Source: an uncultured Bacteroidota bacterium (GTDB lineage: Bacteria; Bacteroidota; Bacteroidia; JABEUT01). Taken from it: DNA of 64,000 nt. The stretch spans positions 68,869 through 132,868 of the forward strand of contig CAIPDV010000042.1 of assembly GCA_903863935.1 (NCBI GenBank), in the 5' to 3' direction. The notes below the pieces were generated by a model. The model ran no database searches and was not told where the DNA came from. It worked only from the letters and a program-made list of their open reading frames with translations. Made by a program: the position numbers and the translations under genes. Of this stretch, positions 4,695 through 59,938 are shown in pieces. Within the stretch, counting starts at the first letter, position 1. The number at the start of each line of letters is the position of its first letter.

Positions 4695-4705
4695 TTTTGT
4701 TGGGG

Positions 4706-11436: not shown

Positions 11437-11496
11437 AATTCCCTCTGATTAGCAGCAGTGTAGTTTTTCCTAACAATAAATGGAGTTTATTTTCGT

Positions 11497-38326: not shown

Positions 38327-38329
38327 ATT

Positions 38330-38833
38330 TTAATCTTTAAGAATTACCGATTCTTTTCCCTTAGTTTTTAAGTTAACCTTAATATGTTCCTGTAAAGTAG
38401 TTGAAATTGATAGCCCGGTATAGTCCGATTTTATTGGAAATATGGTATGATTCCGGTCTACAAGTACTGCAATGCGCAGCGACTTAACAGGGAATTGCAA
38501 AATAGTCTTCATACAATACGACAACATTTGCCCGGTATTCAGCACATCATCTACAAGTATAACCGTTTTCCCGGAAAGGTTTATTTTCTTATCTAATTTC
38601 ACCCCACCTTCTTTGGCAAGCGATTTCTTATCTACATCAACCTTTGTGAGAATGATTTTAAGCGGCGAGATCTTTTTTAGTATCTGTTCAAGCTTTTGGG
38701 CAAGTTCAAATCCCCCCGGATAAGTACCAGCCAGCACCACTTCCTTTTCAGTTGAATTATCTTCATATATCTCATATGCAATACGAGTTATCTTCTTTTC
38801 AATCTGGTCGGTATTTAAAATTGAAGTCTCCAT
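38330..38833 (-). CDS. Phosphoribosyltransferase-family protein, PyrR-like (pyr operon regulator/uracil PRTase)
   Basis: 167 aa. PRPP-binding motif VILVDDVLNTGQM. Confidence 0.55.
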   Translation of the reverse strand: METSILNTDQIEKKITRIAYEIYEDNSTEKEVVLAGTYPGGFELAQKLEQILKKISPLKIILTKVDVDKKSLAKEGGVKLDKKINLSGKTVILVDDVLNTGQMLSYCMKTILQFPVKSLRIAVLVDRNHTIFPIKSDYTGLSISTTLQEHIKVNLKTKGKESVILKD

Positions 38834-43648: not shown

Positions 43649-44701
43649 TTAATATGCTTCACCAATCCTTCCTTTTTTAAATTTTTTGGAGTACCAAAGG
43701 TTAAAGCTAAGGTTAGAAAATCTAAATCGGGTGAATCCAATCCACAAATTAAATACTATCATTTTCCATATTATTAATATGACTGGAATTCCAGTACTTC
43801 TTTTTGAAACATTCGTATTATAACCATACTTGGTATTTGCAAACTCTCCTGTGATATATTCAACAATTATTTTCTCTTCTGCCTTCAACTCACCTTCCCA
43901 TTTATTTATACTTTCAATATTTACAGGTTTCGTAAGACTTTTATGGATTTTTTCCAGGTATTTTTTCTCGAATTTCCGGTTATGAGACATGTCAGGAATT
44001 TTATGGGTCAGCATCTCCTCATTGAATGGCAGATTTAAAAAACCGCATAAATCTTTCAAAGTACCTTCGGTATCTTCCACCAATTTCTCATACTTAATTG
44101 TAAAATATTTTGATGGATTATTTTTTTTATCACTCTCTATAATTGAATTCTGAATAACCCATCCATTAGCATTAAAAATATAATTTTTCATACTAAAGGT
44201 CTTCATTGTACTATTTATAACGGCTCTGGGATCACGAACTATATGAATAAATTTCCCATTGGGATAAAGCACCCTAAGCTTATCAATAAATAAAATATAA
44301 AGCGGGTTTTTATCTGAAATAAGCTTCACATCTCCTTTATCTCGTTTCATTTGGTAATAGACCATCTTACATATCAATGAAAAGTCCGCAACTTCCCGGG
44401 CCGCCATCAGGTTTTTCAAAAGCAGGTCCCAATTTATATTCCAGTATTCAACAAACTGCGGATCCATTTTTAAGGAGTCGACAAAATCAATAATATCACT
44501 TTCCGTCCATTTTTTAATGGATGAAAATCGTGGATAAAGAATTGCAATAAATTTTGTTTCGGGTGGTGCAACAATATTGGGATGCGCATCAAGGAGTGAT
44601 TGTAATAGGGTTGTTCCTGAGCGACCTGTGCCTAACACAAATACAACTGGAATTTCCTTCAATTTATCTATTTCATCCGCTTTAATTACTTTCTCCATCA
44701 T
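43649..44701 (-). CDS. PAPS-dependent sulfotransferase, ST2
   Basis: GTGRSGTTLL and VRDPRAVI. Confidence 0.8.
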   Translation of the reverse strand: MMEKVIKADEIDKLKEIPVVFVLGTGRSGTTLLQSLLDAHPNIVAPPETKFIAILYPRFSSIKKWTESDIIDFVDSLKMDPQFVEYWNINWDLLLKNLMAAREVADFSLICKMVYYQMKRDKGDVKLISDKNPLYILFIDKLRVLYPNGKFIHIVRDPRAVINSTMKTFSMKNYIFNANGWVIQNSIIESDKKNNPSKYFTIKYEKLVEDTEGTLKDLCGFLNLPFNEEMLTHKIPDMSHNRKFEKKYLEKIHKSLTKPVNIESINKWEGELKAEEKIIVEYITGEFANTKYGYNTNVSKRSTGIPVILIIWKMIVFNLWIGFTRFRFSNLSFNLWYSKKFKKGRIGEAY

Positions 44702-44744: not shown

Positions 44745-45782
44745 TCAAAGGCCATAACCTTTCAAATAATTTTTCCGGTAATACGAATTGAACTTATACC
44801 AATTATACCTTGCTTTTGTAAATCCCTCCCAAAGAGCGTAAACAACTTTCGTTTTAAATAATCTATATGCAGAAATATGCTTATTGGGTTTTGATTCACC
44901 CAGTAAATAGCCATATTTTTCTTTGGCATATTTGCCTGTAATATTTTCAGTAACTGCCAAATCATATTCATCAAGTTCAGTCTTCCATTTGCCAATATTA
45001 GAGGCATTAATTGGCTTTAAAAGGCTCTCATGAATTTCTTTATATCGTTCAAATATTGCCTCTTCCTTCAAATTTTCAACATTTTCTGCGAACTTATTTT
45101 TCATTATTGAATTATCATATGGCACATTCAGAAATTCGCATAATAATTTAAAAGTATCGTTAGGATTGGTCACCATCTTCTCGTAAATAACCGTAATAAA
45201 TTGTTGCGGAAATTGCTCTTTCACCTTTTCAATTGCTTGATTCAGACCAACCCACTGCCGGGAAATAAAAAACGTATTTTTCTTTTTCAATCTTTTAATA
45301 TGTCCGTTTATAACATCCCTGGGATCCCTAATTATATGTATGAATCTGGCTTCAGGAAATATCCCGAGAAGCTTATTTGCAAAATAAGAATTCCGAGGAT
45401 CTTTATCCGAGATAAGCAATATGTTTTCTTTATTATTTTTCTTTTGAAGGAAAACAATTTTGCAAGCAAGTTGATAATTTAAACCTTCCCTTAATCTTAT
45501 TAGCTCTTCAAAGAGATTTGCTTTATTCAAAAGCCAGATTTTTGATATTCGCGGAAGACTGAAAAGATCTTCAACAAAATCGTGAACAGTTTTTTCAGTC
45601 CACCTTTTTATCCCTCCAAACTTCGGATACAAAAACAGAATAAAATCGCTTTCCGGCGGGCCCACAATCTGCGGATGTGAATCAAGCATTTCCTGCATTA
45701 AGGTAGTACCGGAACGGCTGCTTCCCAAAATAAAAAGCATTGGTAACTTTTCAATTTCACTGCTCGTAATCCCTTCATTCAT
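44745..45782 (-). CDS. PAPS-dependent sulfotransferase, ST3
   Basis: GSSRSGTTLM and IRDPRDVI. A 4-bp overlap with the upstream GT2 gene implies translational coupling. Confidence 0.8.
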   Translation of the reverse strand: MNEGITSSEIEKLPMLFILGSSRSGTTLMQEMLDSHPQIVGPPESDFILFLYPKFGGIKRWTEKTVHDFVEDLFSLPRISKIWLLNKANLFEELIRLREGLNYQLACKIVFLQKKNNKENILLISDKDPRNSYFANKLLGIFPEARFIHIIRDPRDVINGHIKRLKKKNTFFISRQWVGLNQAIEKVKEQFPQQFITVIYEKMVTNPNDTFKLLCEFLNVPYDNSIMKNKFAENVENLKEEAIFERYKEIHESLLKPINASNIGKWKTELDEYDLAVTENITGKYAKEKYGYLLGESKPNKHISAYRLFKTKVVYALWEGFTKARYNWYKFNSYYRKNYLKGYGL

Positions 45783-46894
45783 CGTGATAAATATTTAATT
45801 AAAAAATAAACCCCGATTGAAATAAATAGATAGGCAAAGAATTTTATAGCTGCCCAAAATCGTTGATAGTTAATATTTTTTCCATTGCAAAAGAAATCAA
45901 ATCGCTTACTAATCCCTTGAAAAATCGTAAATTTTTGGAATTGCATTTTTAATCTTCCATAATCTATTGCTGCTCTTACCCATATAACCTCATGCGTGAA
46001 TTTGCTTTTGCCTAACCCTCCACTCTTCTGCAACCTCATAAACTCCACAATAAATTCTCCTGCAAGCACTCCGATAGAAACACAAAGAATTGGAAGGAAT
46101 GAGTGGATGCAAAAACATACAATTAAGGTAAGTGGGAGGCCAACAAGGAAACACTCCACCATATTGGGAAATGTATAAAACGAATATTGAGGAAATTTTT
46201 GCATTAAAATTGCTGCACCTCCGTTAACCCTTATAAACCTTGAATAATCTCTCTTCCCTTTATTCCACCAATCGTGATAAACAGGAGTATTGGTAAGGCA
46301 TTGCAATTCCTGCTTCGTATTATTATAAATCCGGAGAAAAAAATCAGCTTCCTCACAGGCTCCCCGTTTATCGTATATTTCCAGAAAACGGACATCGCCT
46401 ATTGCGGAGCGCTTTACAACCACATTAGCTGTAGCAGCACATTTTGAATGCTCACGCAAACGGGCCACAGAAAATCCTGCCAGAATACTACCGGCACGCA
46501 AACCTGCGGTGAAACTATTTATGGATTCGGGAAATATAACTTCTCCTAAAAACCCAACCTCTCCTGGCCTTTCAATGATGGCCTTTAAATAGTTTATCAG
46601 TAAATCTTTAGGTGGCTTTACATCATCATCCAAAAACAAAATCCAATCGGCCGTTGATTTATCAATACCGATATTCCTTGTTTTGCTTACTCCATAATTA
46701 GCTTCATTCGCAATTAGGATAACTTTATCATTGTCGACCTGTGTTGCAAAATCTGCCGGTATTTTGCCCTGCGGGTTATCAGAAATTATCAGAAACCTGA
46801 CTTTCGCTTCACTGGGAATATCCATGCTTACTATGGCAGTGAGATATTCACTTTGCAAACGGAAAGAAGGAACTATAACATCCAATGAAACCAT
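45779..46894 (-). CDS. Glycosyltransferase family 2 with a C-terminal membrane region, GT2-a
   Basis: N-terminal VSLDVIVPSFR and the DxD-type motif ILFLDDDV. Two to three C-terminal TM helices. Confidence 0.7.
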   Translation of the reverse strand: MVSLDVIVPSFRLQSEYLTAIVSMDIPSEAKVRFLIISDNPQGKIPADFATQVDNDKVILIANEANYGVSKTRNIGIDKSTADWILFLDDDVKPPKDLLINYLKAIIERPGEVGFLGEVIFPESINSFTAGLRAGSILAGFSVARLREHSKCAATANVVVKRSAIGDVRFLEIYDKRGACEEADFFLRIYNNTKQELQCLTNTPVYHDWWNKGKRDYSRFIRVNGGAAILMQKFPQYSFYTFPNMVECFLVGLPLTLIVCFCIHSFLPILCVSIGVLAGEFIVEFMRLQKSGGLGKSKFTHEVIWVRAAIDYGRLKMQFQKFTIFQGISKRFDFFCNGKNINYQRFWAAIKFFAYLFISIGVYFLIKYLSR

Positions 46895-46964: not shown

Positions 46965-47900
46965 CTATTTAAGTAGGGGCGAATTGTAATTTTTCAAGAT
47001 CTCATCATTCAGTATTTTACTGAATTTGATCGCGCCATCCTTATTAAGATGTGTTACTTCCCTGAAGTCTTCGTCTGTAAATCTTGAATCGGTATGGTAA
47101 TCATACTTCCTGCAACTATAAATTGAACACAACCCATTTATTGCACTATCAATGGTTTTCATCCTGTTCTTATCTAAATATTTATTATAAAAATGGTTGT
47201 AAGGCGCAATAAAAAACACCGGTTCAATATTGCGTTTCTTCAATTCCCCGATAAATATTTTCAGATCGCTAATGTTATCTGCAAAATTTTCCTGCTTCAT
47301 TTCCTTTTCATGAGCTTTGGCAAGATTATACCCGGCCGAATCATTCAAGGGGCCTTTCTTTCCGCCAATAGCCCAACCGTTTTCCTGATAGCCTCTTTCA
47401 AGATCAGTACTAAATCCACTTAGGGCAAAATTCCAGGCTTTTTCATTTCCATACGCCAATATTTTACTGTATAAATGGATATCATACCACTTGATTGAAG
47501 GATACCGAATACCCCATTCCCTGGCATAAAAATAATCGCGAAATGGTTCATCGCATGTATGTACCTGGAACCAAAAACTTGGGTAAGAAATATCGATGAG
47601 TACCACTTTTAGCGAGGTCATTTTATCCAGATACTTCAAGGTTATTCTGGTATCATAATAAATTGACTGCTGAATATTTGCAACGTTATATCCCTTCATT
47701 GAAAAACAATCAGGGTCAACCCCTCTTAGCGAGTGGGAAGGGCCAAGCACAAGCACTTCTATCTTTGGAGCCAATGACTCAAGATGTTCCCTTTTCATTG
47801 AATAACTATCGGGCATGCGACTCAATCCATACTCCCATGCAGCAATAAATCCACTGATGGGGATGAGAAAAATAAATAATCGAATTACAAATTTTTTCAT
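46965..47900 (-). CDS. MBOAT-partner protein (DltD/AlgX/AlgJ-like SGNH-type, DUF1574-like)
   Basis: N-terminal anchor, 311 aa. Immediately downstream of the MBOAT gene and abutting it (47900/47901). Candidate catalytic residues VLVLGPSHS ... D..H (TDEDFREVTHLN). Confidence 0.45.
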   Translation of the reverse strand: MKKFVIRLFIFLIPISGFIAAWEYGLSRMPDSYSMKREHLESLAPKIEVLVLGPSHSLRGVDPDCFSMKGYNVANIQQSIYYDTRITLKYLDKMTSLKVVLIDISYPSFWFQVHTCDEPFRDYFYAREWGIRYPSIKWYDIHLYSKILAYGNEKAWNFALSGFSTDLERGYQENGWAIGGKKGPLNDSAGYNLAKAHEKEMKQENFADNISDLKIFIGELKKRNIEPVFFIAPYNHFYNKYLDKNRMKTIDSAINGLCSIYSCRKYDYHTDSRFTDEDFREVTHLNKDGAIKFSKILNDEILKNYNSPLLK

Positions 47901-49340
47901 CTAAAACTGGAAATAAATAAATTGCCTGTGCTCAAAAATTCCATATACCCCTATTACAAATATGGCTGCATAATAAACTGCCCACCTGATATATACCGGT
48001 TGCTTAAGAAACCTGTTTAACAACGAGTGATTTCTATAGAAATATTGTAATAACTCAAGAACAATTATTAAACCGAATGAAAGAACCAAATAGGAGTTTT
48101 TAACTCCCATAAACTGCAAGTGATGAAAATGCAACAGGTCGTTAAAACTAGTAAACATGTGCCCTGCAATGTAAAACGCATTTGAAATATTATTGGAAGC
48201 GAAAAATATGGTGGCAAAACCAACCAGTGTAAACGTACCAACAATAGAAAATATGCTATATTTCCGGATGCCTATGGCCGTTCGAAATGCCTTCCATGGT
48301 TTACGTGCCAGGGTACCTATCATTAAATAAACGCCGTTTATCACTCCCCACATAATGAAATTCCAACTGGCACCGTGCCAAAGCCCGACAAGAAAAAATA
48401 TTACAAACACATTAAAAAGGTGGCCGGGCACGCCTCTGTACTTTCTGCTCATTGGCATGAACAGGTAATCCCTGAACCAGGTGGATAATGATATATGCCA
48501 TCGTGTCCAAAATTCCGCGATTGTTTTTGACATGAATGGGTAGTTGAAATTCTGCATAAGTTTAATACCCATTACTCTTGCAGCCCCCCGGGCAATATCA
48601 GTATATCCGGAAAAATCGCAATAAATTTTATAGTTGCAAAATAAGGTAGCAATAACCAGGCTTATTCCATTAAAGTGATGAGGATCAGTATAAACATTAT
48701 CTATTAATATAGCCAACCGGTCAGCAATAACAACCTTTTTAAAGAGCCCCCAAGCCATCAAGCGCAACCCACTTGCAACATTCGCATAATCGAATTCGTG
48801 GTTCTGTTTTAATTGCGGAAGCAAATTCTGAGGTCTTTCAATTGGCCCGGCAACTAATTGCGGATAGAACATTACATACAGTGAGTATATCCCGAAGTGT
48901 CGCTCCGCCTTTTGGTTGCCACGATAAACCTCGATGGTATAACTCATGGCCTGAAACGTGTGGAATGAAAGCCCTATTGGAAGCAATATAGCCAGACCGG
49001 GGATTGGGTTAGCGACGTGAAAATTACCCAGAAGAAAAGTAAGGTTATCGTTCAAAAAATTATAATACTTGAAAACCGCCAGCACGCCTATGTTTGCAAC
49101 AAGGCTACAAGTCAAATAGAGTTTTCTTCGTTTGCCCTGGGCACCTTCAATAAAAATCCCGGCGAAATAATCAATAACAATGGTAAAGCCCAGTATCAGT
49201 ATATATATTGGCACAAAGGCCATATAGAAATAACAACTGGCCGCAAGCAGAAGCACCCATCTCCATTGGTGTGTTAAACTAAAATAGAGCACCGTTACAA
49301 TTACAAAAAAATAGAGAAACTGCAGGGAGTTAAAGAGCAT
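47901..49340 (-). CDS. MBOAT-family membrane O-acyltransferase (AlgI/DltB-like)
   Basis: Signature WTRWHISLSTWFRDYLF and the conserved His in GLWHGASWNF. 479 aa, polytopic. Confidence 0.8.
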   Translation of the reverse strand: MLFNSLQFLYFFVIVTVLYFSLTHQWRWVLLLAASCYFYMAFVPIYILILGFTIVIDYFAGIFIEGAQGKRRKLYLTCSLVANIGVLAVFKYYNFLNDNLTFLLGNFHVANPIPGLAILLPIGLSFHTFQAMSYTIEVYRGNQKAERHFGIYSLYVMFYPQLVAGPIERPQNLLPQLKQNHEFDYANVASGLRLMAWGLFKKVVIADRLAILIDNVYTDPHHFNGISLVIATLFCNYKIYCDFSGYTDIARGAARVMGIKLMQNFNYPFMSKTIAEFWTRWHISLSTWFRDYLFMPMSRKYRGVPGHLFNVFVIFFLVGLWHGASWNFIMWGVINGVYLMIGTLARKPWKAFRTAIGIRKYSIFSIVGTFTLVGFATIFFASNNISNAFYIAGHMFTSFNDLLHFHHLQFMGVKNSYLVLSFGLIIVLELLQYFYRNHSLLNRFLKQPVYIRWAVYYAAIFVIGVYGIFEHRQFIYFQF

Positions 49341-49550: not shown

Positions 49551-50624
49551 GTGAGCTCCGACCACCCGATAAACGCCAAGGAAATTAATAATATCCCAAT
49601 GTTATTTATTTTAGGCAATGCGCGCTCTGGCACTACACTTCTACAGGTATTGCTTGATGCACATCCGGAAATAGTCGGAAGCCCTGAATCGAAATTTGCA
49701 GTCTTATTTTACCCAAGATATAAGCATATAAAAAAGTGGAAAGAATCTGATATCATTGATTTTGTAGAGCATTTATATAAGGAACCATTGTTTGTTCAGT
49801 TATGGCATTTGGATAAGGAAAAACTAAAAAAAGAGTTATTGAAAGTGAAGGAAAATGCCACCTATTCTTTGCTTTGCAAAATGGTGTACTATCAAATGCG
49901 AAATGGGAAAAATAATCCGTTGTATCTTTCTGATAAGAACCCTGAATACACTCTTTATATTGATACAATTTTAAAAATGTTTCCGGAGGCAAAGTTTATA
50001 CATATCATTCGGGAACCGAGGGATACGATTTACAGCCAGATGATTTCCTTCAAAGAAAAGAATTCCAAATTCAAAGCCTTTAAATGGTTAGCATTTAATA
50101 CAATTGTAGAGGGAAAAAAGAAAAAAGATCCGGAGCGATATTTTACACTGCTTTATGAAAACCTGGTGAATGATACGGAAGCAACCATGAAAGATTTATC
50201 ATCCTTTTTAAACATTCCATTTTCAGCCTCAATGGCTCAAAACAAAAGCCCTGAGTGGTTAAATGCTCATCTGGAAAAAAATGTGCTCACCGAAAATGCA
50301 AAACCATTTTATGCAAATCTTCTGAAACCAATTAACCCTTCTAAAATCGGGAATTGGAAAAACCACATGGATGTTTATGATCAGACATTAGCGGAGATAA
50401 TTACCGGAGATTTTGCTCACAAAATGTATGGGTATGAAATTGACAGCAACCATAAAAACAAACCGGTAAAAATTTCTGCATACTCGCTGTTTAAAGGCAA
50501 TTGCCTTTACTTTTTCTGGCAAATGTTTAAGCAGGTAAAGGTCAAATCTACCCGCCTGAATTTGTTATATGCCAGGTTCCGAATCATGCTCAATCCGAAT
50601 GTTCGAATTTCGAAGTTTTTCTGA
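49551..50624 (+). CDS. PAPS-dependent sulfotransferase, ST4
   Basis: GNARSGTTLL and IREPRDTI. Confidence 0.8.
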   Translation: MSSDHPINAKEINNIPMLFILGNARSGTTLLQVLLDAHPEIVGSPESKFAVLFYPRYKHIKKWKESDIIDFVEHLYKEPLFVQLWHLDKEKLKKELLKVKENATYSLLCKMVYYQMRNGKNNPLYLSDKNPEYTLYIDTILKMFPEAKFIHIIREPRDTIYSQMISFKEKNSKFKAFKWLAFNTIVEGKKKKDPERYFTLLYENLVNDTEATMKDLSSFLNIPFSASMAQNKSPEWLNAHLEKNVLTENAKPFYANLLKPINPSKIGNWKNHMDVYDQTLAEIITGDFAHKMYGYEIDSNHKNKPVKISAYSLFKGNCLYFFWQMFKQVKVKSTRLNLLYARFRIMLNPNVRISKFF

Positions 50625-50664: not shown

Positions 50665-51726
50665 ATGAATAATCCCGGGTTAAGAGAAATAGAAGAGATA
50701 AGGAAGATACCCATGCTTCTAATATTCGGGAAAGGTCGTTCTGGTACTACATTATTACAATCTGTGCTTAATGCTCATCCGAGCGTTGTAGCTCCACCCG
50801 AATCTAAATTTATGATGGTGCTTTATCCCAAGTTCAGAAGCATAAAAAAATGGAGCGAAAAGGATGCATTAAGTTTTGTTGAAGAAGTATTCAATTTTCC
50901 GACTTTCAACAACCGCTGGCACATGGATAAAGAAGTTGTAACTTCCTATATTATGGCTGCAAGGGAACAACTTGATTATGCACTGGCCTGCAAAATTATC
51001 TATTATATATGGGGAGAAAAAAGAACCGTACTTTATTTATCAGATAAAAATCCGGATTATTATCTATTCACTAAAAAACTATTCAAACTTTATCCCGAAG
51101 TAAAATTCATACATCTGGTTAGAGAACCAAGAGATAATGCGCTGAGTACATTTAAGGCATTCGAGAGCAAAAGCCCATTCTACGCAGCATTTAAATGGGT
51201 TGCAGTAAATTCCATTATGGATAAGCTGGTAAAGAAAATGCCCGGGAAAGGAATTACAGTTTTTTATGAAAACATGGTGGAGAATCCCGAGGCCTTTTTT
51301 AAAAATATCTGTGGCTTTCTGGATATACCTTATGTGCCTGAAATGCTAAACCGCGATATGCCTGAAAAGTTCTACAAAGACAAAACGGTAATGGAAGCAA
51401 TTTTAAAAAAGCAGAATAAACTTTTCACCCCTATCACTCCATCTTCAGTTGGGAAATGGAAAACCGATTTAAAGCCATTCGCCATTGCAGTTACTGAGAA
51501 AATTACGGGGAAATATGCATTAGAAAACTATAAATACACAGTAGGTTCTGAAGAAGGAAAAAATGTTTCAGTAAGCTATTTTAAGATTCTAAAGGGAAGC
51601 TGTATTTATTACGGATGGCAAGCATTTACTCGCTTCCGCTATACATCCTTCAGATTAAATAAAACATATTCATGGTTGAGGCGAAAACTAAGCGGGGGCA
51701 AGCTATTGCCCTGGCAATATTACTAA
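50665..51726 (+). CDS. PAPS-dependent sulfotransferase, ST5
   Basis: GKGRSGTTLL and VREPRDNAL. Confidence 0.8.
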   Translation: MNNPGLREIEEIRKIPMLLIFGKGRSGTTLLQSVLNAHPSVVAPPESKFMMVLYPKFRSIKKWSEKDALSFVEEVFNFPTFNNRWHMDKEVVTSYIMAAREQLDYALACKIIYYIWGEKRTVLYLSDKNPDYYLFTKKLFKLYPEVKFIHLVREPRDNALSTFKAFESKSPFYAAFKWVAVNSIMDKLVKKMPGKGITVFYENMVENPEAFFKNICGFLDIPYVPEMLNRDMPEKFYKDKTVMEAILKKQNKLFTPITPSSVGKWKTDLKPFAIAVTEKITGKYALENYKYTVGSEEGKNVSVSYFKILKGSCIYYGWQAFTRFRYTSFRLNKTYSWLRRKLSGGKLLPWQYY

Positions 51727-52910
51727 GCAGTTTTTGCAACTCTGAATCGCTTGCCGAAAGAAAGAAGCCTTTTCTCGAATAATTGATAAGATACTGCCGC
51801 TATGCCAATTGTTGAGAGTATTGTAGTCAAATAGTAAATCAAATTCATTTGCCACCCGGCTATTTGCCTGCCAGCTATTTTTTCAATTAATTCCATAGCC
51901 AAAATCCTCATGATTGGGCTATACATATAGAGCCCATACGATATTTTCCCCAGATAATTCATCCATGGGAAATCAAGTTTAATAATGGATTTAGGATTAG
52001 CAGCAAGGTTAACAATAATGCACATAAAGAGAACAGAATACCATTCGTAATTCATACTGGGAAAGCTTTCCCGGCCAATGGCTCGTAACCCAATTCTTGA
52101 AAACAACAGACCAAGAGTTAAAAGGTATATCCCAAACTGTACATCTCTCCTGAATAAAAAAGAAAGCACTTTTTTATTTTCCGTAATTACCAAATACGCG
52201 CCTATTCCTCCAATAGCCATGCTGCTTATGCGGTATTGCACAGACATGCTTCGCAAGAACTTGAAAATATTTTCACTGGCCAACGAACCATTAAATAATG
52301 GCTCACATAGGAGCACTGCATTGCGGAGCAATATAATTCCCGCAATAATCAGTATGAACAATTTTAAATAATTCTTTGCCCTTTTTAAAAATAAAGGCCA
52401 GCACAAATAAAATACTTCTTCTACCCCGATTGACCATATAGGGCCAATCGTTTGCGGAAGTCCGGTAGCAGTCCTCACGATTGGGCTTAAGAACAAAATA
52501 CAACCGATAAAATACAGCCAAAAATGTTTATAAATATGAAATGAATACGCGGTACTGAAATAGGCATCTAAATGTGGCAACACAAAAAAACCTAAAATGA
52601 CAATTAAAAAGTAAAGGGGCCAAATACGTAATGTTCTGCGTAAATAAAATGCCTTAAGGTCAATAGTATTTGTTTTCTTCTTTTCCTGAAGCAACAGGAA
52701 TGTTATCAGAAAACCACTGAGCACAAAGAATAATGTCACGTCCATTTCTCCCGTAGGATGGAAATAGCGGATCCATGGAATCACCTCCCGGCCATGCTTG
52801 AATTTAATGTCCTCAATATGAAGAATGATAATAATGAGCGAGCCTACGAACCTCAATCCGTCCAGATTTGGGAAGTATTTCCGTTGATTTGGACTGAGAT
52901 CTTTTTCCAC
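51723..52910 (-). CDS. Acyltransferase family 3 membrane O-acyltransferase, copy b
   Basis: YFPNLDGLRFVGSLIIIILH. Paralog of 40602..41738. Confidence 0.75.
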   Translation of the reverse strand: MEKDLSPNQRKYFPNLDGLRFVGSLIIIILHIEDIKFKHGREVIPWIRYFHPTGEMDVTLFFVLSGFLITFLLLQEKKKTNTIDLKAFYLRRTLRIWPLYFLIVILGFFVLPHLDAYFSTAYSFHIYKHFWLYFIGCILFLSPIVRTATGLPQTIGPIWSIGVEEVFYLCWPLFLKRAKNYLKLFILIIAGIILLRNAVLLCEPLFNGSLASENIFKFLRSMSVQYRISSMAIGGIGAYLVITENKKVLSFLFRRDVQFGIYLLTLGLLFSRIGLRAIGRESFPSMNYEWYSVLFMCIIVNLAANPKSIIKLDFPWMNYLGKISYGLYMYSPIMRILAMELIEKIAGRQIAGWQMNLIYYLTTILSTIGIAAVSYQLFEKRLLSFGKRFRVAKTA

Positions 52911-52922: not shown

Positions 52923-54014
52923 TTAAGCCGCGTTTGTTTTCAGGTTTTTTAACCTTTCTTTTTCTGCTTTCTCTTTCAGATAATCGTCTAGCTTTCCTGA
53001 TTCCGCAAGGTGTACAAGATTATTGTCCTTCTTAACCAATTTGTAGCTTTTCCAGATGGGAGGATGGAGGGCAAATAAATCTAAAAAGGTATATAACGGA
53101 GATATTTTGAAAGAGTAGAACGGTGCTACCCAACGGTACCCAACACCAATGGAGTCGGAACCATTTTTTACGGTATGCCAGTAAAATGGAGGGTTCCAGA
53201 ACACATCTCCCGGTTTAAGGCTAACGGATATCCCGTCAATATATTTATATAACTCATTCGGGGGACTGAAATCAGTATTGAAAGGATCGAAGGGCATATT
53301 ATTTTTGGCCCTGAAAGGCGCATTACGATAAATATTTCGTACCGGATCCGGGTCAATTATCGGAGTGTAATAATGGGAATATAAAACCCAGTTCTTTTCT
53401 CCGTAGGTCTGCACAAATAAATTTGGCGCATTAGCATTATGCAGATAAGAAACTGTTCCCTTCCCACCAATAAAAAGCTGAAAAGAATCAAAAAAAGTAA
53501 ACCCCTTTCTCCTCTCAAGAAGCCAGCTATAATCAAAGTCTTTAATGTGTTCCGGATGATGATCGAGCAATGGATAAAAACGATAGTACTTGCCACCTCC
53601 GCTCCGAATGTTATCAAGCACTTCGCCAAGGGTGGTGGTTTCGTAATTCTTCATATCCGATTGGTCAGTCACCATCATAATTTCATCTGAACCATGCAAC
53701 TCTTTAAAATAGTCGAGAGACCATTTCTTTACGCAATCCCATTCTTTTGCAGCACCCTCCATAACAACAGGAATGCCCTTCTTCACGTAGTGATTAAAAA
53801 ATTCTTCCTTACTTAGATTAGTTCTTCTATCAATTGGAAATATCTTCCCTTCCCCACTCTTTTTGAGGGTTTCAAGCAGATTACGGTAGAATTTTTTACG
53901 GCGTTTCCCAAGAAGTTTAAATACCCTTGCCCTACCAACAAATTGATCAAGGATTTGATATATCCCATATTCAATTCGTTGACCTGCTTTTATATTTCTT
54001 CTGAAATCGCCCAT
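52923..54014 (-). CDS. Cupin-like/JmjC-domain protein (putative Fe/2OG hydroxylase), copy a
   Basis: 363 aa. Cupin_8/JmjC-like architecture (…VVMEGAAKEWDCVKKW… FYWHTVKN…). It is a tandem paralog of 54054..55127, with about 65-70% identity by eye. Confidence 0.5.
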   Translation of the reverse strand: MGDFRRNIKAGQRIEYGIYQILDQFVGRARVFKLLGKRRKKFYRNLLETLKKSGEGKIFPIDRRTNLSKEEFFNHYVKKGIPVVMEGAAKEWDCVKKWSLDYFKELHGSDEIMMVTDQSDMKNYETTTLGEVLDNIRSGGGKYYRFYPLLDHHPEHIKDFDYSWLLERRKGFTFFDSFQLFIGGKGTVSYLHNANAPNLFVQTYGEKNWVLYSHYYTPIIDPDPVRNIYRNAPFRAKNNMPFDPFNTDFSPPNELYKYIDGISVSLKPGDVFWNPPFYWHTVKNGSDSIGVGYRWVAPFYSFKISPLYTFLDLFALHPPIWKSYKLVKKDNNLVHLAESGKLDDYLKEKAEKERLKNLKTNAA

Positions 54015-54053
54015 TAATACCTAATTAATACTGACAAATATAAAATAATTCCA

Positions 54054-55127
54054 TTAAGATTTTTGTGCGGCTTCTTGCTCAGCTTTATCTTTCAAATATT
54101 TGTCCAAATTACCATATTCCGCTAAATGTACAAGGTTTATATCCTTTTTATACAGTGAATATGACTTCCAAAATGGAGGATTGGTGGCCAGCATATCCAG
54201 GAACATATATAGCGGAGCTATTTTGAATGAATATAATGGCGGCAGCCAGCGATAACCGACCCCAATTGAGTCAGTATTGTTCCTGACACAATGCCAATAA
54301 AATGGAGGATTCCAAAGAACATCACCGGGATGAAGATGTACAGAAAGCCCATCAATATATTTATAAAGAGAGTAAGGTTTTTCATAGTCCGGATTAAATG
54401 GGTCGAATTGCCCTATATCATTTCTCTTAGGCCCATTACGGTAAACATTGCGAACTGGATCGGGGTCAATTATCATCGTATGATATTGCGAGTATAAAAT
54501 CCATTCCTTTTCTCCATAGACCTGAACAAAGAGATTGCATTGGTTCGCGTTATGCAAATCGGTTACAGAGCCTTTCCCCCCAATAAATACCTGGAATGCT
54601 TCAAACCATGTCCTTGGGTTTCTGCGTTCGCGCAACCATTTATAATCGAAATCTTTTAAATGCTCCGGATGCCTGTCCAGCAATGGATAGAAACGATAGT
54701 ATTTGCTGCCACCCGAACGGATATTATCGATAACATTTCCCAATGTTGTCTCTTCGTAAGGATAGCCCGGTTTATCTACTTCAACCCTAACAATCTTATC
54801 ATCTCCATGAAGGTCTTTAAAGTATTCTAGCGACCATTTTTTAACACAATCCCAATCTTTTGCTGCACCTTCCAAAACTACGGGAATACCTTTTTTAACG
54901 TATTCGTTGATAAACTCCTCTTTGCTTAAATTGGCTCTCCTCTGAATAGGTATTATTTTCCCTTCTCCACTCTTTTTAAGTGTTTCCGTAAGGTTTTTGT
55001 AAAATTTCTTCCTTCGCTTCCCAAGGAGTTTAAATACCCTTTTCCTTCCAATAAATTGGTCTAATATCTGATAAAACCCATACTCAATACGCTGACTTGT
55101 TTTAATATTTCTCCTGAAATCCCCCAT
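54054..55127 (-). CDS. Cupin-like/JmjC-domain protein (putative Fe/2OG hydroxylase), copy b
   Basis: 357 aa. Begins MGDFRRNIKTSQRIEYG..., nearly identical to the N-terminus of copy a. Confidence 0.5.
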   Translation of the reverse strand: MGDFRRNIKTSQRIEYGFYQILDQFIGRKRVFKLLGKRRKKFYKNLTETLKKSGEGKIIPIQRRANLSKEEFINEYVKKGIPVVLEGAAKDWDCVKKWSLEYFKDLHGDDKIVRVEVDKPGYPYEETTLGNVIDNIRSGGSKYYRFYPLLDRHPEHLKDFDYKWLRERRNPRTWFEAFQVFIGGKGSVTDLHNANQCNLFVQVYGEKEWILYSQYHTMIIDPDPVRNVYRNGPKRNDIGQFDPFNPDYEKPYSLYKYIDGLSVHLHPGDVLWNPPFYWHCVRNNTDSIGVGYRWLPPLYSFKIAPLYMFLDMLATNPPFWKSYSLYKKDINLVHLAEYGNLDKYLKDKAEQEAAQKS

Positions 55128-55248
55128 TTGAACAGCATTTATAAATACAAATGTAAAATAAAAACATAATTTATCACGTTAGTAGCCAAAAGCCTACCTT
55201 TTAAGCTGTGTATGGAAAATATTAACTTTGTGAAAATTACGTAAACAA

Positions 55249-56250
55249 TTGGGCGCTTATATTAAAGCTGTGAGTTATTATATGCCTGAAAAGGTTCTTA
55301 CCAATGAGGAATTATCGGTCATATTTCCTGAATTCAGTACCGATGAAATATTCAGAAGATCGGGAGTAAGAACACGTCATATTTCTGCTGAACATGAACT
55401 TGCTTCAGATATGGCTGTTGTTGCAGCGGAAAAATTGTTTTCGGAAAGTAGCATTCAAAAAAACGAGATAGGCTTTACTCTTTTTTGTGCTGAAATTTTA
55501 GATAGAACCGCACCTGCAACAGCTTGTATTTTGCAAAACAGAATCGGGCTTCCTAAACAATCTGGTGCAATGGACATCCCCATGGGATGTTCAGGCTTTA
55601 TGTATGGGTTATTATTAGCAAAATCTTTGGTTTGCAGCAATGCAGTCGACAACGTTCTTTTACTCACCGGGGAATGTGAAACCAAAACAATACACCCGGC
55701 TGACCATGAACTGCGTATGATTTTCGGAGATGGCATGGCAGCAACCATTATTAGCCGTAATGAAGATAATTCGATTGGTGATTTTGTAATTGGAACAGAT
55801 GGTAGTGGTTGGGAAAATTTAGCAGTAAGAGGCTGCAATGCCAGAGAATTAGCTAGCGTAGAGTGGCTAAAAGAAAATGAGAGTGCAGGTGGTATGCCTT
55901 ATGGAAGGCTTACTATGAATGGAACAGAAATACTTAATTTCACCCTGAAAAACGTGCCAAAAATGGTGAACGAAGTATTGGAAAAAGAGAAACTGACAAT
56001 GGACAATATCGACCTGGTTATTTTTCACCAGGCAAGTGGGTTTATGTTGGAAGTATTGAGAAGAAAAATGAAAATACCTAAAGAAAAATTCTTTACCAAT
56101 ATTGCAGAAAAAGCGAATACCGTTTCAGCAACTATACCCATCGCATTGCGCGATGCAATGGATGCAGGCCTTGTTAAAAAAGGGAATAAAGTTTTGCTCG
56201 CAGGCTTCGGTATTGGTTATTCATGGGGTGCTACAGTTATTACAATTTAA
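55249..56250 (+). CDS. 3-oxoacyl-ACP synthase III family (FabH-like KAS III), copy a
   Basis: Active-site Cys in MGCSGFMYGL. His and Asn regions are present (IFHQASGFM; N-T-x-S-A-T). Confidence 0.8.
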   Translation: MGAYIKAVSYYMPEKVLTNEELSVIFPEFSTDEIFRRSGVRTRHISAEHELASDMAVVAAEKLFSESSIQKNEIGFTLFCAEILDRTAPATACILQNRIGLPKQSGAMDIPMGCSGFMYGLLLAKSLVCSNAVDNVLLLTGECETKTIHPADHELRMIFGDGMAATIISRNEDNSIGDFVIGTDGSGWENLAVRGCNARELASVEWLKENESAGGMPYGRLTMNGTEILNFTLKNVPKMVNEVLEKEKLTMDNIDLVIFHQASGFMLEVLRRKMKIPKEKFFTNIAEKANTVSATIPIALRDAMDAGLVKKGNKVLLAGFGIGYSWGATVITI

Positions 56251-56261: not shown

Positions 56262-56504
56262 ATGGGGATAGAAGATCTACTAAAACAATTACAAGCAGAA
56301 TTTGAAGATATTCCTGCAGGAACTTTAAAACCCGAAACTAAAATTTCTGATATTGAAGGCTGGGGTTCCATGCACGCATTGATAGTTATTGCGCTTGCCG
56401 ATACCGAATATGGCGTTACGATAAAAGGTGATGAACTCCGCAAAGTACAATCGGTTCAGGAATTATATGATTTGATAATTGAAAAACAAAAAAATCCGGA
56501 GTAA
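56262..56504 (+). CDS. Acyl carrier protein (about 80 aa)
   Basis: A helical protein of about 80 aa with a putative phosphopantetheine Ser in DIEGWGSMHAL. The ATG at 56262 avoids overlapping the FabH gene. The ORF-track start at 56223 is rejected. Confidence 0.6.
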   Translation: MGIEDLLKQLQAEFEDIPAGTLKPETKISDIEGWGSMHALIVIALADTEYGVTIKGDELRKVQSVQELYDLIIEKQKNPE

Positions 56505-56510: not shown

Positions 56511-57566
56511 ATGGCATTTTTCTCGGTTGAAAATATTCGCATTAAAGGTATTGGCGCAGCCGTTCCTAAGAAAGAAATTTCTAATTGGGATTATACCTAC
56601 ATTTCAGAGTCGGACAGAAAGCTACTAATAAAAACAACAGGTGTTGAGAAGCGCAGATCTATTGGTGATAGCGGAGTAACTGAAACCGACCTTGCCAAAG
56701 CGGCTGCCGAAAAATTACTTATTGAAACCGACACACTTAAAGACGAAATTGAAATTTTAGTTTTTGTTTCTCAAACTCCCGATTACTTTTTACCTGCCAG
56801 TAGTATATTGTTGCAAAACCGATTGGGGCTAAAAAAGAGCTGCATGGCTTTTGATATTAACCTTGGGTGCTCCGGATATGTATACGGACTCTCTGCTATC
56901 AGTTCAATAATGAGCAGTGGCAAGTTCAAAAAAGGTCTTTTATTAGCAGGCGACACGTCTACCATTGGAACACCCTGGGAAGATAAAAGTGTTTATCCTT
57001 TGTTTGGAGATTCAGGCACTGCTACTTTGCTTGAATATGATGAAACAGCCGGAAAAACTACCTTCAGCCTGAATTCGGATGGTTCCGGATATGAGGCTAT
57101 TATTGTGCGAGACGGGGGGACAAGAAGCCCCTATACCAAGGAATCGTTTGAAATAAAAGAAAGAAATCAGGGAGTACTTCGTGCTGACCGCAACCTGGAA
57201 CTAAACGGGATGGAAGTGTTCAATTTTTCAGTAACTGTGGTACCAAAACACCTTGATGAATTTTTACAGAAGACTATTACAACTCCTGATTCATACGATT
57301 TTTTTGTAATGCACCAGGCCAATTTGCTTATGAATGAAACCATCCGGAAAAAATTAAAATTTCCTCCCGAGAAAGTCCCTTATTCCATACAAAAATTTGG
57401 TAATACAAGTTCGGGGTCCATTCCTCTAACCATAGTTTCTGAATTGAAAGATAAGGTTGCAGGTGAAAAAAATTTCCTGATGTCAGGCTTTGGAGTTGGC
57501 TTGTCATGGGCCACTGTTTCTCTGAAAACTAATAACTTAATTTGCACCGATATTGTTGAAATATAA
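56511..57566 (+). CDS. 3-oxoacyl-ACP synthase III family (FabH-like), copy b
   Basis: NLGCSGYVYGL active-site Cys, FVMHQANL His region, NTSSGS Asn region. Confidence 0.75.
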   Translation: MAFFSVENIRIKGIGAAVPKKEISNWDYTYISESDRKLLIKTTGVEKRRSIGDSGVTETDLAKAAAEKLLIETDTLKDEIEILVFVSQTPDYFLPASSILLQNRLGLKKSCMAFDINLGCSGYVYGLSAISSIMSSGKFKKGLLLAGDTSTIGTPWEDKSVYPLFGDSGTATLLEYDETAGKTTFSLNSDGSGYEAIIVRDGGTRSPYTKESFEIKERNQGVLRADRNLELNGMEVFNFSVTVVPKHLDEFLQKTITTPDSYDFFVMHQANLLMNETIRKKLKFPPEKVPYSIQKFGNTSSGSIPLTIVSELKDKVAGEKNFLMSGFGVGLSWATVSLKTNNLICTDIVEI

Positions 57567-57568: not shown

Positions 57569-58318
57569 ATGACTACGCCGTTTCATCTAACCAATAAAAC
57601 TATATTTATTACCGGTGCATCATCCGGCATTGGCAGGCAGATTGCCATTTCCTGTAGTGCAATGGGGGCAAAAGTTATTATCAGCGGGCGAGATGAAGAA
57701 AGGTTGAATGAAACCCTTGCATTACTTCAGGGAGAAGGGCATTCACAGTTTACTTCAGACTTGACAGATGAAAAACAACGCAATGATTTAATTGACCTGA
57801 TACCAGGTATTGATGGCTTTGTTCACTCTGCAGGAATAGTTCTTCCTGTTCCTGTTAAATTCATTGCAGAAAAACATTTGAGAAGCGTGATGGGAATTAA
57901 TTTTGAGTCTGCAGTGCTTACAGTAGCAAGGCTTCTCAAAAATAAAAAGCTGAATGAAAAAGCTTCGTTGGTTTTCTTTTCTTCTGTTTCGGTAAATCAT
58001 CCGTATAGTGGAGGTTCATTGTATACCGCATCCAAAGGGGCCATTGAAGCATACAGTAAAAACCTAGCACTTGAGATCTATCAAAAGAAAATGCGTTCGA
58101 ATGTAATTGTCCCTGCAATGGTAAGAACCCCCTTATATGAGGAAACCATTAACCAGGGCATGTACAGAAATGTTGAAGAATATGAAAGCAAATATCCCCT
58201 TGGAATAGGAAGACCCGAAGATGTTGCAAATGCGGCGGTGTACCTGCTTTCAGATGCATCGTGCTGGGTGACCGGAACAAATTTATTACTGGATGGTGGA
58301 TTTACAATTGGCAAATAA
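57569..58318 (+). CDS. SDR-family oxidoreductase (FabG-like 3-oxoacyl reductase)
   Basis: TGASSGIGRQIA Rossmann motif, YTASKGA catalytic YxxxK. 249 aa. Confidence 0.8.
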   Translation: MTTPFHLTNKTIFITGASSGIGRQIAISCSAMGAKVIISGRDEERLNETLALLQGEGHSQFTSDLTDEKQRNDLIDLIPGIDGFVHSAGIVLPVPVKFIAEKHLRSVMGINFESAVLTVARLLKNKKLNEKASLVFFSSVSVNHPYSGGSLYTASKGAIEAYSKNLALEIYQKKMRSNVIVPAMVRTPLYEETINQGMYRNVEEYESKYPLGIGRPEDVANAAVYLLSDASCWVTGTNLLLDGGFTIGK

Positions 58319-58329
58319 AAACTGTTGAA

Positions 58330-59259
58330 ATGGCTGAACAACCAAAAAAAATATCGATTGTAATTCCGGTTTATAATGCTTCTACAGTTTTGATAGAACT
58401 GCAAAAAAGGATTGACGGCGTTTTTAAAGAAATTAATATTCCTTACCAACTTGTTTTGGTAGATGATTGTTCCAGAGATGACAGTTGGAGCGTAATTAAG
58501 GAAATAAAAAGCCAATTTCCTGAAAACATTACCGCAATAAGGCTTGCCAAAAATTTCGGCCAGCATAATGCTATTGCATGCGGCTTTCATTATTGCTCCG
58601 GTGATTATATAATTACAATGGATGACGACCTTCAGCATCCGCCGGAAGAAATACCAAAGCTCATAAAAAAAGCTACTGAAAATGGTGCTGATGTAGTATA
58701 TGGTATATCAGATAAATACAAAAGGTCTTTGCTTAGAAATACAACAAGCATAGTATTTAAAGTTACCACGAAATATACTTCTGCCAGCACAGGTAATGGC
58801 TCTCCATTCAGGATAATCAAGAAAAGTATTGTAAAAAAAATCATCACGCACAATCAGCAATTTGTTTTTATTGATGAACTTATTTCATGGTACACCAAAA
58901 ATATTGAATTTGTGGTGGTAGACCATAAAGCCTCCGGTCTTAAAGCCTCACGTTACTCTGGTTATAAATTGATGAACCTTTACTTTAATTTGGTGTTCGG
59001 GTACAATGCCCTGCCATTGCGATTAATAACTTATCTGGGTCTTATTGCATCCTTCATTTCATTTTTAGTAGGGCTTTTCTTTTTTATCAAAAAGATGTTT
59101 TTCAATGTCAGGGTAGGATTTACCGGTATAGTTGTGAGTATAACTTTTACAGCTGGTATAATTCTCCTTAGCATTGGCGTTATTGGCGAATACATGCGCA
59201 GAATGTATAACATTCTTAATGCTCAGCCGCAACATTCAATCGGCGAAATTTTAGAATAA
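58330..59259 (+). CDS. GT2 glycosyltransferase of the polyprenyl-phosphate sugar synthase type (ArnC/GtrB/DPM1-like) with two C-terminal TM helices, GT2-b
   Basis: ISIVIPVYNAS, VLVDDCSRDDS and ITMDDDLQHPP motifs, plus two C-terminal TM helices. ATG at 58330 (MAEQPKK) is chosen over the ORF-track start at 58261. Confidence 0.75.
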   Translation: MAEQPKKISIVIPVYNASTVLIELQKRIDGVFKEINIPYQLVLVDDCSRDDSWSVIKEIKSQFPENITAIRLAKNFGQHNAIACGFHYCSGDYIITMDDDLQHPPEEIPKLIKKATENGADVVYGISDKYKRSLLRNTTSIVFKVTTKYTSASTGNGSPFRIIKKSIVKKIITHNQQFVFIDELISWYTKNIEFVVVDHKASGLKASRYSGYKLMNLYFNLVFGYNALPLRLITYLGLIASFISFLVGLFFFIKKMFFNVRVGFTGIVVSITFTAGIILLSIGVIGEYMRRMYNILNAQPQHSIGEILE

Positions 59260-59260: not shown

Positions 59261-59938
59261 ATGCTTATCCGCAAGTACGGAATCACCCTTAAAAGACTCA
59301 AGGAAGAGGATATTGAACTTGTGCGTGAAATGCGTAATTCTACTGTTATTTCAAGAACCATGGCTTATCGGGAACACATTACTCCTGAAATGCAGAAAAA
59401 GTGGTTTGAATCCATCAATAATAAATACAACGGATACTTTATAATTGTTTATGAGGGGAAAAAAATAGGCCTGATAAACGGCAAAAATATTGACTTTGAA
59501 AAAAGATGCTGTGAAGGCGGGATTTTTATCTGGGATGAACATTATAAAAACACAATTGTTCCCGGGCTGGCTTCCATAATCATGAACGATTGGACCTTCC
59601 TCATCATTAATTTTAATGTCATTTATGCGAAGGTTCTTCAAGAAAATGGCAATGCACTCACATATGACAAACTGATGGGATACGAGCCATGCCAGCCTCT
59701 GACAGATGAAAAAGGGGTGCAATGGCTAAAACTTACAAAGGAAAATTATTTACGAAAAGTGAAATTACTGCGAAAAAGTTTCCTGCAAAACTTTGGTGGG
59801 GTTGAACCATTGACACCCCTCGATGTTGATGCATCAGATGATTTGGGTAAAGAAATTAACCTCTTCTATACAGGACTCCCAACCGATATTCAGGAAAAAG
59901 CAGATGAGTTGCTGGAAAGAGCAAGAAGTAAGTCATAA
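59261..59938 (+). CDS. GNAT-family (RimL-like) N-acyltransferase
   Basis: N-terminal ITLKRLKEEDIELV is typical of RimJ/RimL-type GNATs. 225 aa. Confidence 0.4.
   Translation: MLIRKYGITLKRLKEEDIELVREMRNSTVISRTMAYREHITPEMQKKWFESINNKYNGYFIIVYEGKKIGLINGKNIDFEKRCCEGGIFIWDEHYKNTIVPGLASIIMNDWTFLIINFNVIYAKVLQENGNALTYDKLMGYEPCQPLTDEKGVQWLKLTKENYLRKVKLLRKSFLQNFGGVEPLTPLDVDASDDLGKEINLFYTGLPTDIQEKADELLERARSKS

Follow-up and report, generated by a model that had tools for sequence, protein, structure and literature searches.

It is the absence of the usual carboxylate ligand, giving HxA/G...H in combination with an intact 2-oxoglutarate (2OG) site, that is the defining signature of the Fe/2OG halogenases. 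SyrB2, CmaB, CurA-Hal, HctB, WelO5 and BesD all have this arrangement and several of them act on acyl or aminoacyl chains tethered to a carrier protein. OocP, a further Fe/2OG halogenase, is a heterodimer (PMC11260071). In the passages considered here of a survey of this enzyme class (Iyer et al., 2010; PMC2938197), the missing acidic residue is noted only for halogenases of the PhyH type, fusions of FIH-like domains with P-loop sulfotransferases are described for Monosiga and stramenopiles, as are gene neighbourhoods of bacteria in which a beta-hydroxylase accompanies a sulfotransferase. Here we describe two tandem genes, JmjA and JmjB, at positions 52,923 to 55,127 of a 64,000-nucleotide stretch of DNA from an uncultured Bacteroidota bacterium (GenBank assembly GCA_903863935.1, contig CAIPDV010000042.1, positions 68,869 to 132,868; hereafter the window, numbered from its first letter). 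On our best reading both gene products are two-histidine Fe(II)/2OG oxygenases that would tailor the acyl chain, built on an acyl carrier protein (ACP), of a lipid-linked N-acyl amino sugar, and they probably help to decorate a sulfated, possibly chlorinated, surface glycolipid. The two genes are as follows.

54054..55127, reverse strand: JmjA, predicted Fe(II)/2OG oxygenase of the Cupin_8/JmjC fold, 357 aa (Pfam Cupin_8, E 8.7e-28), site H192-N-A194...K207...H279
52923..54014, reverse strand: JmjB, tandem paralog of JmjA, 363 aa (Pfam Cupin_8, E 9.4e-22), site H-N-A...K...H

By their open reading frame (ORF) coordinates the two genes are separated by 39 nt. The initial annotation of the window had described tandem paralogs of about 360 aa with near-identical N-termini, and this proved correct: JmjA and JmjB share 73% identity across 353 aa (BLASTP, E = 0), both match Cupin_8, both give a weak Pfam match to JmjC_2 and both begin MGDFRRNIK(T/A)(S/G)QRIEYG. 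A recent duplication or gene conversion as the source of the N-terminal likeness was ruled out, the two copies falling in separate and old paralog clades. As they belong to different, old lineages, the shared N-termini represent conservation across the whole family. An AlphaFold2 model of JmjA (pLDDT 92.6, pTM 0.90) has as its top Foldseek match JMJD5 (TM-score 0.82 on the target), followed by FIH, JMJD7 and TYW5, with a probability of 1.00. Taken with the Pfam matches of both proteins, this identifies the JmjC double-stranded beta-helix and upholds the JmjC/cupin-like fold first assigned to the pair. To this fold the JmjA family adds approximately 60 helical residues at the N-terminus and approximately 60 at the C-terminus in the model. 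The best explanation of these features is that both proteins are soluble Fe(II)/2OG oxygenases of the cytoplasm, with the JmjC/Cupin_8 fold.

The iron site was examined by phmmer alignment of JmjA to JMJD5 (E 3e-19) and FIH. Both histidine ligands, His192 and His279, are kept and the position of the usual Asp/Glu ligand is occupied by Ala194. In the alignment to human JMJD5, GSVTDLHNANQCNLFVQVYGEK of JmjA is matched to a 22-residue JMJD5 segment and FYWHCV to KYWHYV; LHNAN of JmjA aligns with LHQDP of JMJD5 and with HYD of FIH, which places Ala194 opposite D201 of FIH. The residue numbers of JMJD5 and FIH are those that we take the structures to carry; the alignments themselves were computed. 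The entry for the D201A mutant of FIH (2ilm) scored better against JmjA (E 2.9e-11) than did wild-type FIH (E 2.8e-10) and the register of the alignment at Ala194 is therefore confirmed. JmjA and JmjB thus lack the HxD/E...H facial triad (H192-N-A194...H279), an outcome that the initial annotation had itself set against its hydroxylase proposal. The check that it had proposed on 2OG binding went the other way: Tyr143, Thr189 (three residues before the first His), Asn198 (six after) and Lys207 (fifteen after) are all retained in JmjA and match JMJD5. In an alignment of 29 homologs (alignment A1) Tyr143, Asn198, Lys207, His192 and His279 are invariant, Thr189 being the exception. The invariance of 2OG-binding residues and of both histidines argues against a dead enzyme. 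From alignment and model together JmjA and JmjB are predicted to fold properly as JmjC enzymes, with the co-substrate site complete and two histidines at the metal site, and not to be decayed copies. Outside the 2OG site the same alignment contains a series of invariant basic residues (R39, R63, R145, R230, R293, K104 and K321).

The loss of the carboxylate is not peculiar to this pair. Among the best 120 homologs (58-100% identity), in which the entries that carry an organism name are Bacteroidota metagenome-assembled genomes (MAGs), the motif is HxA in 112, HxS in two, HxN in one and HxE in five. An exhaustive HMMER search of 1.84 billion representatives gave 143 clusters (50% identity) at E <= 1e-30. 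In the 129 full-length representatives at 50% identity the residue at the position of Ala194 is A in 81, G in 17, E in 15, D in 8, S in 4, N in 2, V in 1 and T in 1, a bimodal distribution in which 98 of 129 have A or G and 23 have D or E. The second His is present in all 129 and the Lys in 128, with Arg in the other. A carboxylate-less site is therefore the rule in a large and uncharacterised JmjC clade that contains JmjA and JmjB. On a rough neighbour-joining tree the ancestral state is small with approximately 16 switches between small and acidic residues. The HxE paralogs form a derived clade whose members share gene clusters with three HxA paralogs (loci L010 and L011; locus numbers are our own). 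Columns that co-vary with Ala or Glu at position 194 were looked for among 122 paralogs and none was found. Loci L010, L011 and L058 are five-JmjC clusters that mix three HxA with two HxE copies and form natural pairs for the study of chlorine versus hydroxyl outcome. None of ten members looked up in public sources, whose hosts are in the Planctomycetota, Terriglobia, Bdellovibrionota and Bacteroidota, has a functional name, the entries being 'cupin-like domain-containing protein' or 'hypothetical'; occasional automatic labels on members read 'lysine-specific demethylase 8' and, in one case, 'ribosomal protein L16 Arg81 hydroxylase'.

On the other side of JmjA from JmjB, and divergent from it, lies a cassette built around a stand-alone ACP and two beta-ketoacyl-ACP synthase III (KASIII) genes.

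55128..55248, no strand: divergent intergenic region of 121 bp between JmjA and the KASIII-ACP cassette (from ORF coordinates)
55249..56250, forward strand: first KASIII, FabH-like (Pfam ACP_syn_III and ACP_syn_III_C; NCBIfam beta-ketoacyl-ACP synthase III subfamily, 259 bits, above cut-off)
56262..56504, forward strand: stand-alone ACP, 80 aa, motif GWGSM (weak PP-binding match, E 0.0047)
56511..57566, forward strand: second KASIII, FabH-like (Pfam and NCBIfam, FabH subfamily)
57569..58318, forward strand: short-chain dehydrogenase/reductase (SDR), FabG-like ketoreductase (adh_short_C2, E 4.7e-44; FabG-type NCBIfam matches)
58261..59259, forward strand: GT2b, glycosyltransferase family 2 (GT2) protein of the ArnC/GtrB-like polyprenyl-phosphate sugar transferase type (Glycos_transf_2, E 2.3e-32)
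59261..59938, forward strand: PseH/SpeG-like GNAT amine N-acyltransferase (Acetyltransf_3; PseH model, E 1.6e-16; SpeG structures, E 1e-7)

The best PDB match of the ACP is the putative ACP 2lml, in which the serine of the DSL motif aligns with that of the window protein, and an 80-aa gene is also called at this point in locus L001. GT2b matches the NCBIfam ArnC model below its cut-off (E 1.6e-55) and has C-terminal transmembrane-like segments (residues 250-312). As listed, its ORF has a GTG start and shares 58 nt with the end of the SDR gene; translation probably begins instead at an ATG near 58330, given the conserved N-terminus MAEQPKK.... From the families present, the cassette would build a short (hydroxy)acyl-ACP, N-acylate an amino sugar with it and load the sugar onto undecaprenyl phosphate, and membrane-associated tailoring enzymes could then act on the undecaprenyl-phosphate-linked intermediate.

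The association of this cassette with JmjC genes was surveyed by taking one genome per GTDB species, which gave 74 loci, and mapping homologs of the window genes by tblastn; the counts below out of 48 or 24 refer to the 48 long loci of at least 15 kb. The combination of a stand-alone ACP and two KASIII genes next to JmjC genes, as in the window, is conserved in 24 of the 48, where the order KASIII-ACP-KASIII-SDR (ketoreductase)-GT2 (ArnC-like)-GNAT (PseH-like) occurs within 10 kb and is followed by one to five JmjC paralogs, by up to four sulfotransferases (20 of the 24 loci) and by up to three OlsC-like hydroxylase genes (19 of the 24). Over all long loci the conserved partners of the JmjC genes are the KASIII-ACP cassette (24/48), sulfotransferases (22/48) and OlsC-like genes (22/48). 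MAGs that bear the array are labelled Flavobacteriales, Vicingaceae, Parvicellaceae, Crocinitomicaceae, Saprospiraceae and Chitinophagales, and three isolates also carry it, namely Acidiluteibacter ferrifornacis S-15 (L046), Haloflavibacter putidus PLHSN227 (L051) and Mesonia aquimarina (L053). The genes of the array all point the same way over approximately 11.5 kb in L008/L081, and in L056 two JmjC genes are inserted between the first KAS gene and the ACP. The remaining 24 long loci have a single HxA copy in housekeeping-like surroundings.

JMJD5 and FIH are the best matches of JmjA in sequence and in fold, and with the single member automatically named for ribosomal protein L16 they could be taken to mean that the pair are classical hydroxylases of proteins or ribosomes, like JMJD5, FIH and YcfD, and unrelated to the locus. 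The JmjC genes are linked to ACP, KAS, sulfotransferase, OlsC-like or membrane-protein genes, and no association with ribosomal, translation or other protein-substrate genes is conserved in the surveyed loci. We regard a protein or ribosome hydroxylase, or equally a catalytically dead paralog, as very improbable. The non-protein context that was first proposed for the pair was therefore borne out.

The membrane protein mentioned in this linkage, a polytopic protein of approximately 550 aa, is the direct neighbour of the JmjC gene in 13 of the 25 loci inspected and lies between the GNAT and JmjC genes in several clusters. Examples are found at 8302-9951 of L017 and at 6412-8037 and 8385-9986 of L081; there is none in the window. 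It has no NCBIfam or PDB match, nor a Pfam hit on record, and may be a missing transferase or flippase of the pathway. One further contig of the survey, L033, is binned as Hydrocarboniphaga (Gammaproteobacteria) and matches a locus of a Flavobacterium MAG (L034) in its gene arrangement, the JmjC genes of the two being adjacent on the tree; it is probably mis-binned.

On the JmjB side the window continues into genes for sulfotransferases, a second type of oxygenase and O-acyltransferases.

40602..41738, reverse strand: AT3a, membrane O-acyltransferase (Acyl_transf_3, E 6.8e-24), abutting the OlsC-like gene
41740..42495, reverse strand: OlsC/LpxO-like homolog of the Asp_Arg_Hydrox family (Pfam, E 6.9e-36)
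42595..43638, forward strand: sulfotransferase ST1
43649..44701, reverse strand: sulfotransferase ST2
44745..45782, reverse strand: sulfotransferase ST3 (36-41% identity to the other sulfotransferases, intact motifs for 3'-phosphoadenosine 5'-phosphosulfate, PAPS)
45779..46894, reverse strand: GT2a (Pfam)
46965..47900, reverse strand: DltD/SGNH-like protein (Pfam)
47901..49340, reverse strand: MBOAT/DltB-like protein (Pfam; DltB model, E 7e-43)
49551..50624, forward strand: sulfotransferase ST4 (Sulfotransfer_3, E 3.7e-36; PAPS-loop GxxRSGTT intact)
50665..51726, forward strand: sulfotransferase ST5 (Sulfotransfer_1/_3 annotation in L001; PAPS-loop GxxRSGTT intact)
51723..52910, reverse strand: AT3b, membrane O-acyltransferase (Acyl_transf_3, E 7.6e-25), beginning 12 nt past JmjB

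Five Sulfotransfer_3 genes thus lie between the two oxygenase regions, four recognised by Pfam and ST3 by its identity to the others and its PAPS motifs. They are old paralogs, 36-43% identical to one another, with intact PAPS loops. Each ends in an aromatic and basic tail of approximately 70 residues, which in ST2 includes a transmembrane-like segment, and these tails suggest anchoring at the membrane surface. Genes for PAPS synthesis were looked for in the window and are absent. The OlsC/LpxO-like hydroxylase that had been placed next to AT3a is indeed there. Its nearest NCBIfam models are OlsC (E 1.1e-32, 113 bits against a cut-off of 450) and LpxO (E 9.3e-23, 81 bits against 500) and by these scores it is a homolog, and not an ortholog, of LpxO/OlsC. 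Aligned to human AspH it shows H-E-G...D...H, the two-histidine site of the Asp_Arg_Hydrox family, together with a C-terminal transmembrane-like segment (residues 222-249) consistent with an anchor.

AT3a and AT3b are 47% identical. Their positions had been read as a mirrored arrangement in which each hydroxylase is paired with an AT3 gene; what is found is a repeat of the order oxygenase then AT3, with both pairs on the reverse strand. Nor is the pairing a conserved unit, as AT3 genes lie near JmjC genes in only three of the 48 long loci (and on the short contigs L012, L013 and L069), all of them close relatives of the window, which makes the pairing lineage-specific. Of the initial annotation as a whole, the fold and the non-protein context have stood, whereas the assignment as hydroxylases by an HxD/E...H triad and the conserved pairing with AT3 have not. 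GT2a, the DltD-like protein and MBOAT are likewise lineage-specific and are kept in none to two of the long loci. At 37190-38833 are a 378-aa ORF without a Pfam hit and a 167-aa ORF that accompany AT3 and sulfotransferase genes in L069; each also recurs without the other, the 167-aa ORF in L009 and the 378-aa ORF in L011. The two may be a lineage-specific part of the cluster.

Among the reactions that such a site could support we tentatively favour radical aliphatic halogenation, that is chlorination, a reading that is credible but falls short of likely. The substrate, the use of halide and the order of steps in what follows are those that we infer. 2OG and O2 would generate Fe(IV)=O, chloride would occupy the coordination site vacated by the alanine and the substrate radical would rebound onto chlorine. 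The substrate would be the short (hydroxy)acyl chain from the adjacent KASIII-ACP-KASIII-ketoreductase cassette, and JmjA and JmjB could act on it while it is bound to the ACP or later, once it has been N-linked to an amino sugar by the PseH-like GNAT and this sugar has been transferred to undecaprenyl phosphate by the ArnC-like GT2. Hydroxyls would come from the OlsC-like hydroxylase and the ketoreductase, the five membrane-tailed sulfotransferases would sulfate these and the AT3 and MBOAT proteins would add lineage-specific O-acyl groups. Both proteins show the halogenase ligand set, with the carboxylate replaced by Ala and both histidines kept, and in every feature of the Fe/2OG halogenases that can be read from sequence they agree with that class.

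Close to this stands the proposal, essentially the model of the initial annotation, that JmjA and JmjB are two-histidine hydroxylases with the logic of AspH in a JmjC fold. Water would fill the site vacated by the alanine, unactivated carbons of the acyl chain or sugar would be hydroxylated and the new hydroxyls would be sulfated by the sulfotransferase paralogs or O-acylated by AT3b. This is a real possibility, if not the one that we prefer, and the two chemistries are not separable from sequence alone. Several observations speak for hydroxylation and weigh against chlorination. AspH, which has an HxG motif and only two histidine ligands, hydroxylates and does not halogenate (PMC13168262), and a two-histidine site therefore does not prove halogenation. 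The OlsC-like enzyme of the same locus has an H-x-G...D...H arrangement, and structures of the D201A and D201G variants of FIH exist (among the Foldseek matches). The D201G variant is reported still to hydroxylate. JmjC and sulfotransferase copy numbers correlate (Spearman 0.51, p 0.011, with kinship ignored and partial loci included), and in the window the coupling of JmjB to AT3b parallels that of the OlsC-like gene to AT3a, which fits a hydroxyl product. About half of the close homologs are solitary, beside a polytopic membrane protein of no known family, and in their housekeeping-like surroundings these copies look more like enzymes of general lipid modification. Variants with HxS (9) and HxN (2) are present in the family and could hold water. 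Also weighing against chlorination, the similarity of JmjA to the Cupin_8 structure 8a82 is remote (E 1e-4, compared with 3e-19 to JMJD5) and chlorinated lipids or glycans are not known to us from bacteria of this kind.

That we nevertheless favour chlorination has several reasons. A dedicated hydroxylase family, the OlsC-like proteins, is already present in 19 of the 24 cassette loci. JmjC genes persist without sulfotransferases (L053, L056, L062 and L068); they outnumber sulfotransferases in 10 of the 24 cassette loci, and four of the 24 have no sulfotransferase. The linkage to a carrier protein matches the logic of SyrB2- and OocP-type halogenases. The bimodality of A/G and D/E at position 194, with HxE and HxA paralogs that coexist without any other consistent change, suggests two chemistries. 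Finally, the only natural carboxylate-less Cupin_8 protein of solved structure that was seen, 8a82, is one that we take to be a halogenase. A bolder form of the chlorination reading, in which the one to five JmjC paralogs of each cluster are regiospecific chlorinases that with one to five sulfotransferases build a polychlorinated, polysulfated acyl-amino-sugar lipid, we consider distinctly unlikely. Were it true, this lipid would correspond in bacteria to the chlorosulfolipids of algae, and the JmjC-sulfotransferase fusions expanded in stramenopiles would be candidates for the eukaryotic equivalents.

The invariant basic residues outside the 2OG site allow for a further possibility, namely that the iron is completed by an anion of the substrate (sulfate, phosphate or carboxylate) or that the enzymes have another 2OG-dependent outcome such as desaturation, epimerisation or C-C chemistry. 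The neighbouring genes would make anionic substrates (sulfate esters, undecaprenyl phosphate and phosphopantetheine), which fits the idea. Against it stands the occurrence of JmjC genes without sulfotransferases, and we know of no precedent for such chemistry in the JmjC fold. We regard it as unlikely.

Elsewhere in the window, a protein encoded at 381-2398, directly 3' of an AhpC/TSA redoxin, has the C-terminal domain of a copper type II ascorbate-dependent monooxygenase (PHM/DBH-like), and a sulfur-handling block at 4284-7144 encodes a TauE/SafE exporter, a Sulf_transp protein and a SoxA/TsdA-like dihaem cytochrome c. Two giant cargo proteins of the type IX secretion system (1359 and 1233 aa), with SprB, NHL, PKD and beta-propeller repeats, occupy 7357-15198 and a further cargo protein of this system is found at the cluster border (38979-40418). 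A 456-aa ORF at 15581-16951 has a weak Swt1-like HEPN match (E 1.2e-5, under the Pfam cut-off).

JmjA and JmjB thus represent a Bacteroidota-centred, multi-paralog and carboxylate-less JmjC family within a conserved ACP/sulfotransferase/OlsC-like cluster. A literature search found no paper joining Cupin_8 and halogenase; on JmjC proteins with halogenases it returned Iyer et al. (2010) and otherwise nothing but computational or general work, on JmjC proteins with sulfotransferases in Bacteroidota Iyer et al. (2010) alone, and the conserved cluster was not found in the literature searched. A search on chlorosulfolipids gave neither biosynthetic genes nor a halogenase. We know of no halogenase that has been assigned to chlorosulfolipid biosynthesis. 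Environmental producers of chlorosulfolipids are still unresolved (PMC13413282). If JmjA and its relatives are chlorinases, the 143 clusters would offer a large and little explored supply of radical halogenases of the JmjC fold in the Bacteroidota, Planctomycetota, Acidobacteriota and Bdellovibrionota, and the hydroxylase-type HxE/D sisters in the same gene clusters would be useful for C-H functionalisation biocatalysis and for learning what steers rebound to chlorine or to hydroxyl. It would also point to an envelope glycolipid, sulfated and possibly chlorinated, in Bacteroidota that are common in water and soil. Should they instead be two-histidine hydroxylases, AspH/LpxO would be joined by a second natural lineage that does without the carboxylate of the facial triad. 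Three cultured carriers are available for testing.

In comparison with described systems, those of Iyer et al. (2010; PMC2938197) share with the window the co-occurrence of a JmjC- or AspH-type oxygenase with a P-loop sulfotransferase, but in the passages of that survey considered here they are read as peptide-modifying, and neither the KASIII-ACP/ArnC-like/GNAT cluster nor a carboxylate-less JmjC protein is mentioned. SyrB2-type halogenases belong to a PhyH/TauD-like branch and not to the JmjC proteins and, beyond the fold, have no detectable sequence similarity to JmjA and JmjB. Nearer is 8a82, deposited as a 'Cupin_8 domain-containing protein', which we take to be OocP of the OocP/OocQ oocydin halogenase. 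Chain A has a natural WHQGN...K(+15)...H in which the Gly aligns with Ala194, so that H-Q-G corresponds to H-N-A, and it shares with JmjA and JmjB the Cupin_8/JmjC fold, the Lys fifteen residues after the first His, the second His and an N-terminal helical region. The common HxG/A...K...H register is found in the direct phmmer comparison to JmjA (E 1e-4) and through a bridging member, P0252 (E 8e-16), and hhalign gives a probability of 99.85% with a profile that includes P0252, itself in the wider JmjA family. The 8a82 protein differs in its Gly and, if it is OocP, in its heterodimer and its trans-acyltransferase polyketide synthase (PKS) setting, whereas JmjA and JmjB have Ala and are tandem paralogs beside sulfotransferases in Bacteroidota; no PKS was found in the window or in the 74 related loci. 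A search with a 205-aa 8a82-like fragment rebuilt from an alignment found only relatives at 52-66% identity and short fragments at 94-95%. In one locus (L080, positions 9965-10384; GCA_000400565.1) no more than the C-terminal third of an 8a82-like Cupin_8 gene is detectable, the gene being masked, frameshifted or cut short, and next to it are a 6,897-aa ORF and PKS genes; as to the identity of 8a82 these neighbours are suggestive and not proof. JMJD5 (KDM8) and FIH share with JmjA and JmjB the two His ligands and the Tyr, Ser/Thr, Asn and Lys that bind 2OG, but they carry HxD and act on proteins, whereas the window pair have Ala, a context of lipid, sugar and ACP genes and the extra terminal helices. 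AspH, LpxO and OlsC belong to another Pfam family, and in AspH a second-sphere Asp holds water. Like JmjA and JmjB, they have a natural two-histidine site with a small residue, Gly in their case, where the carboxylate would be; the substrates of LpxO and OlsC are lipid acyl chains, and a member of their Asp_Arg_Hydrox family is encoded in the window locus itself.

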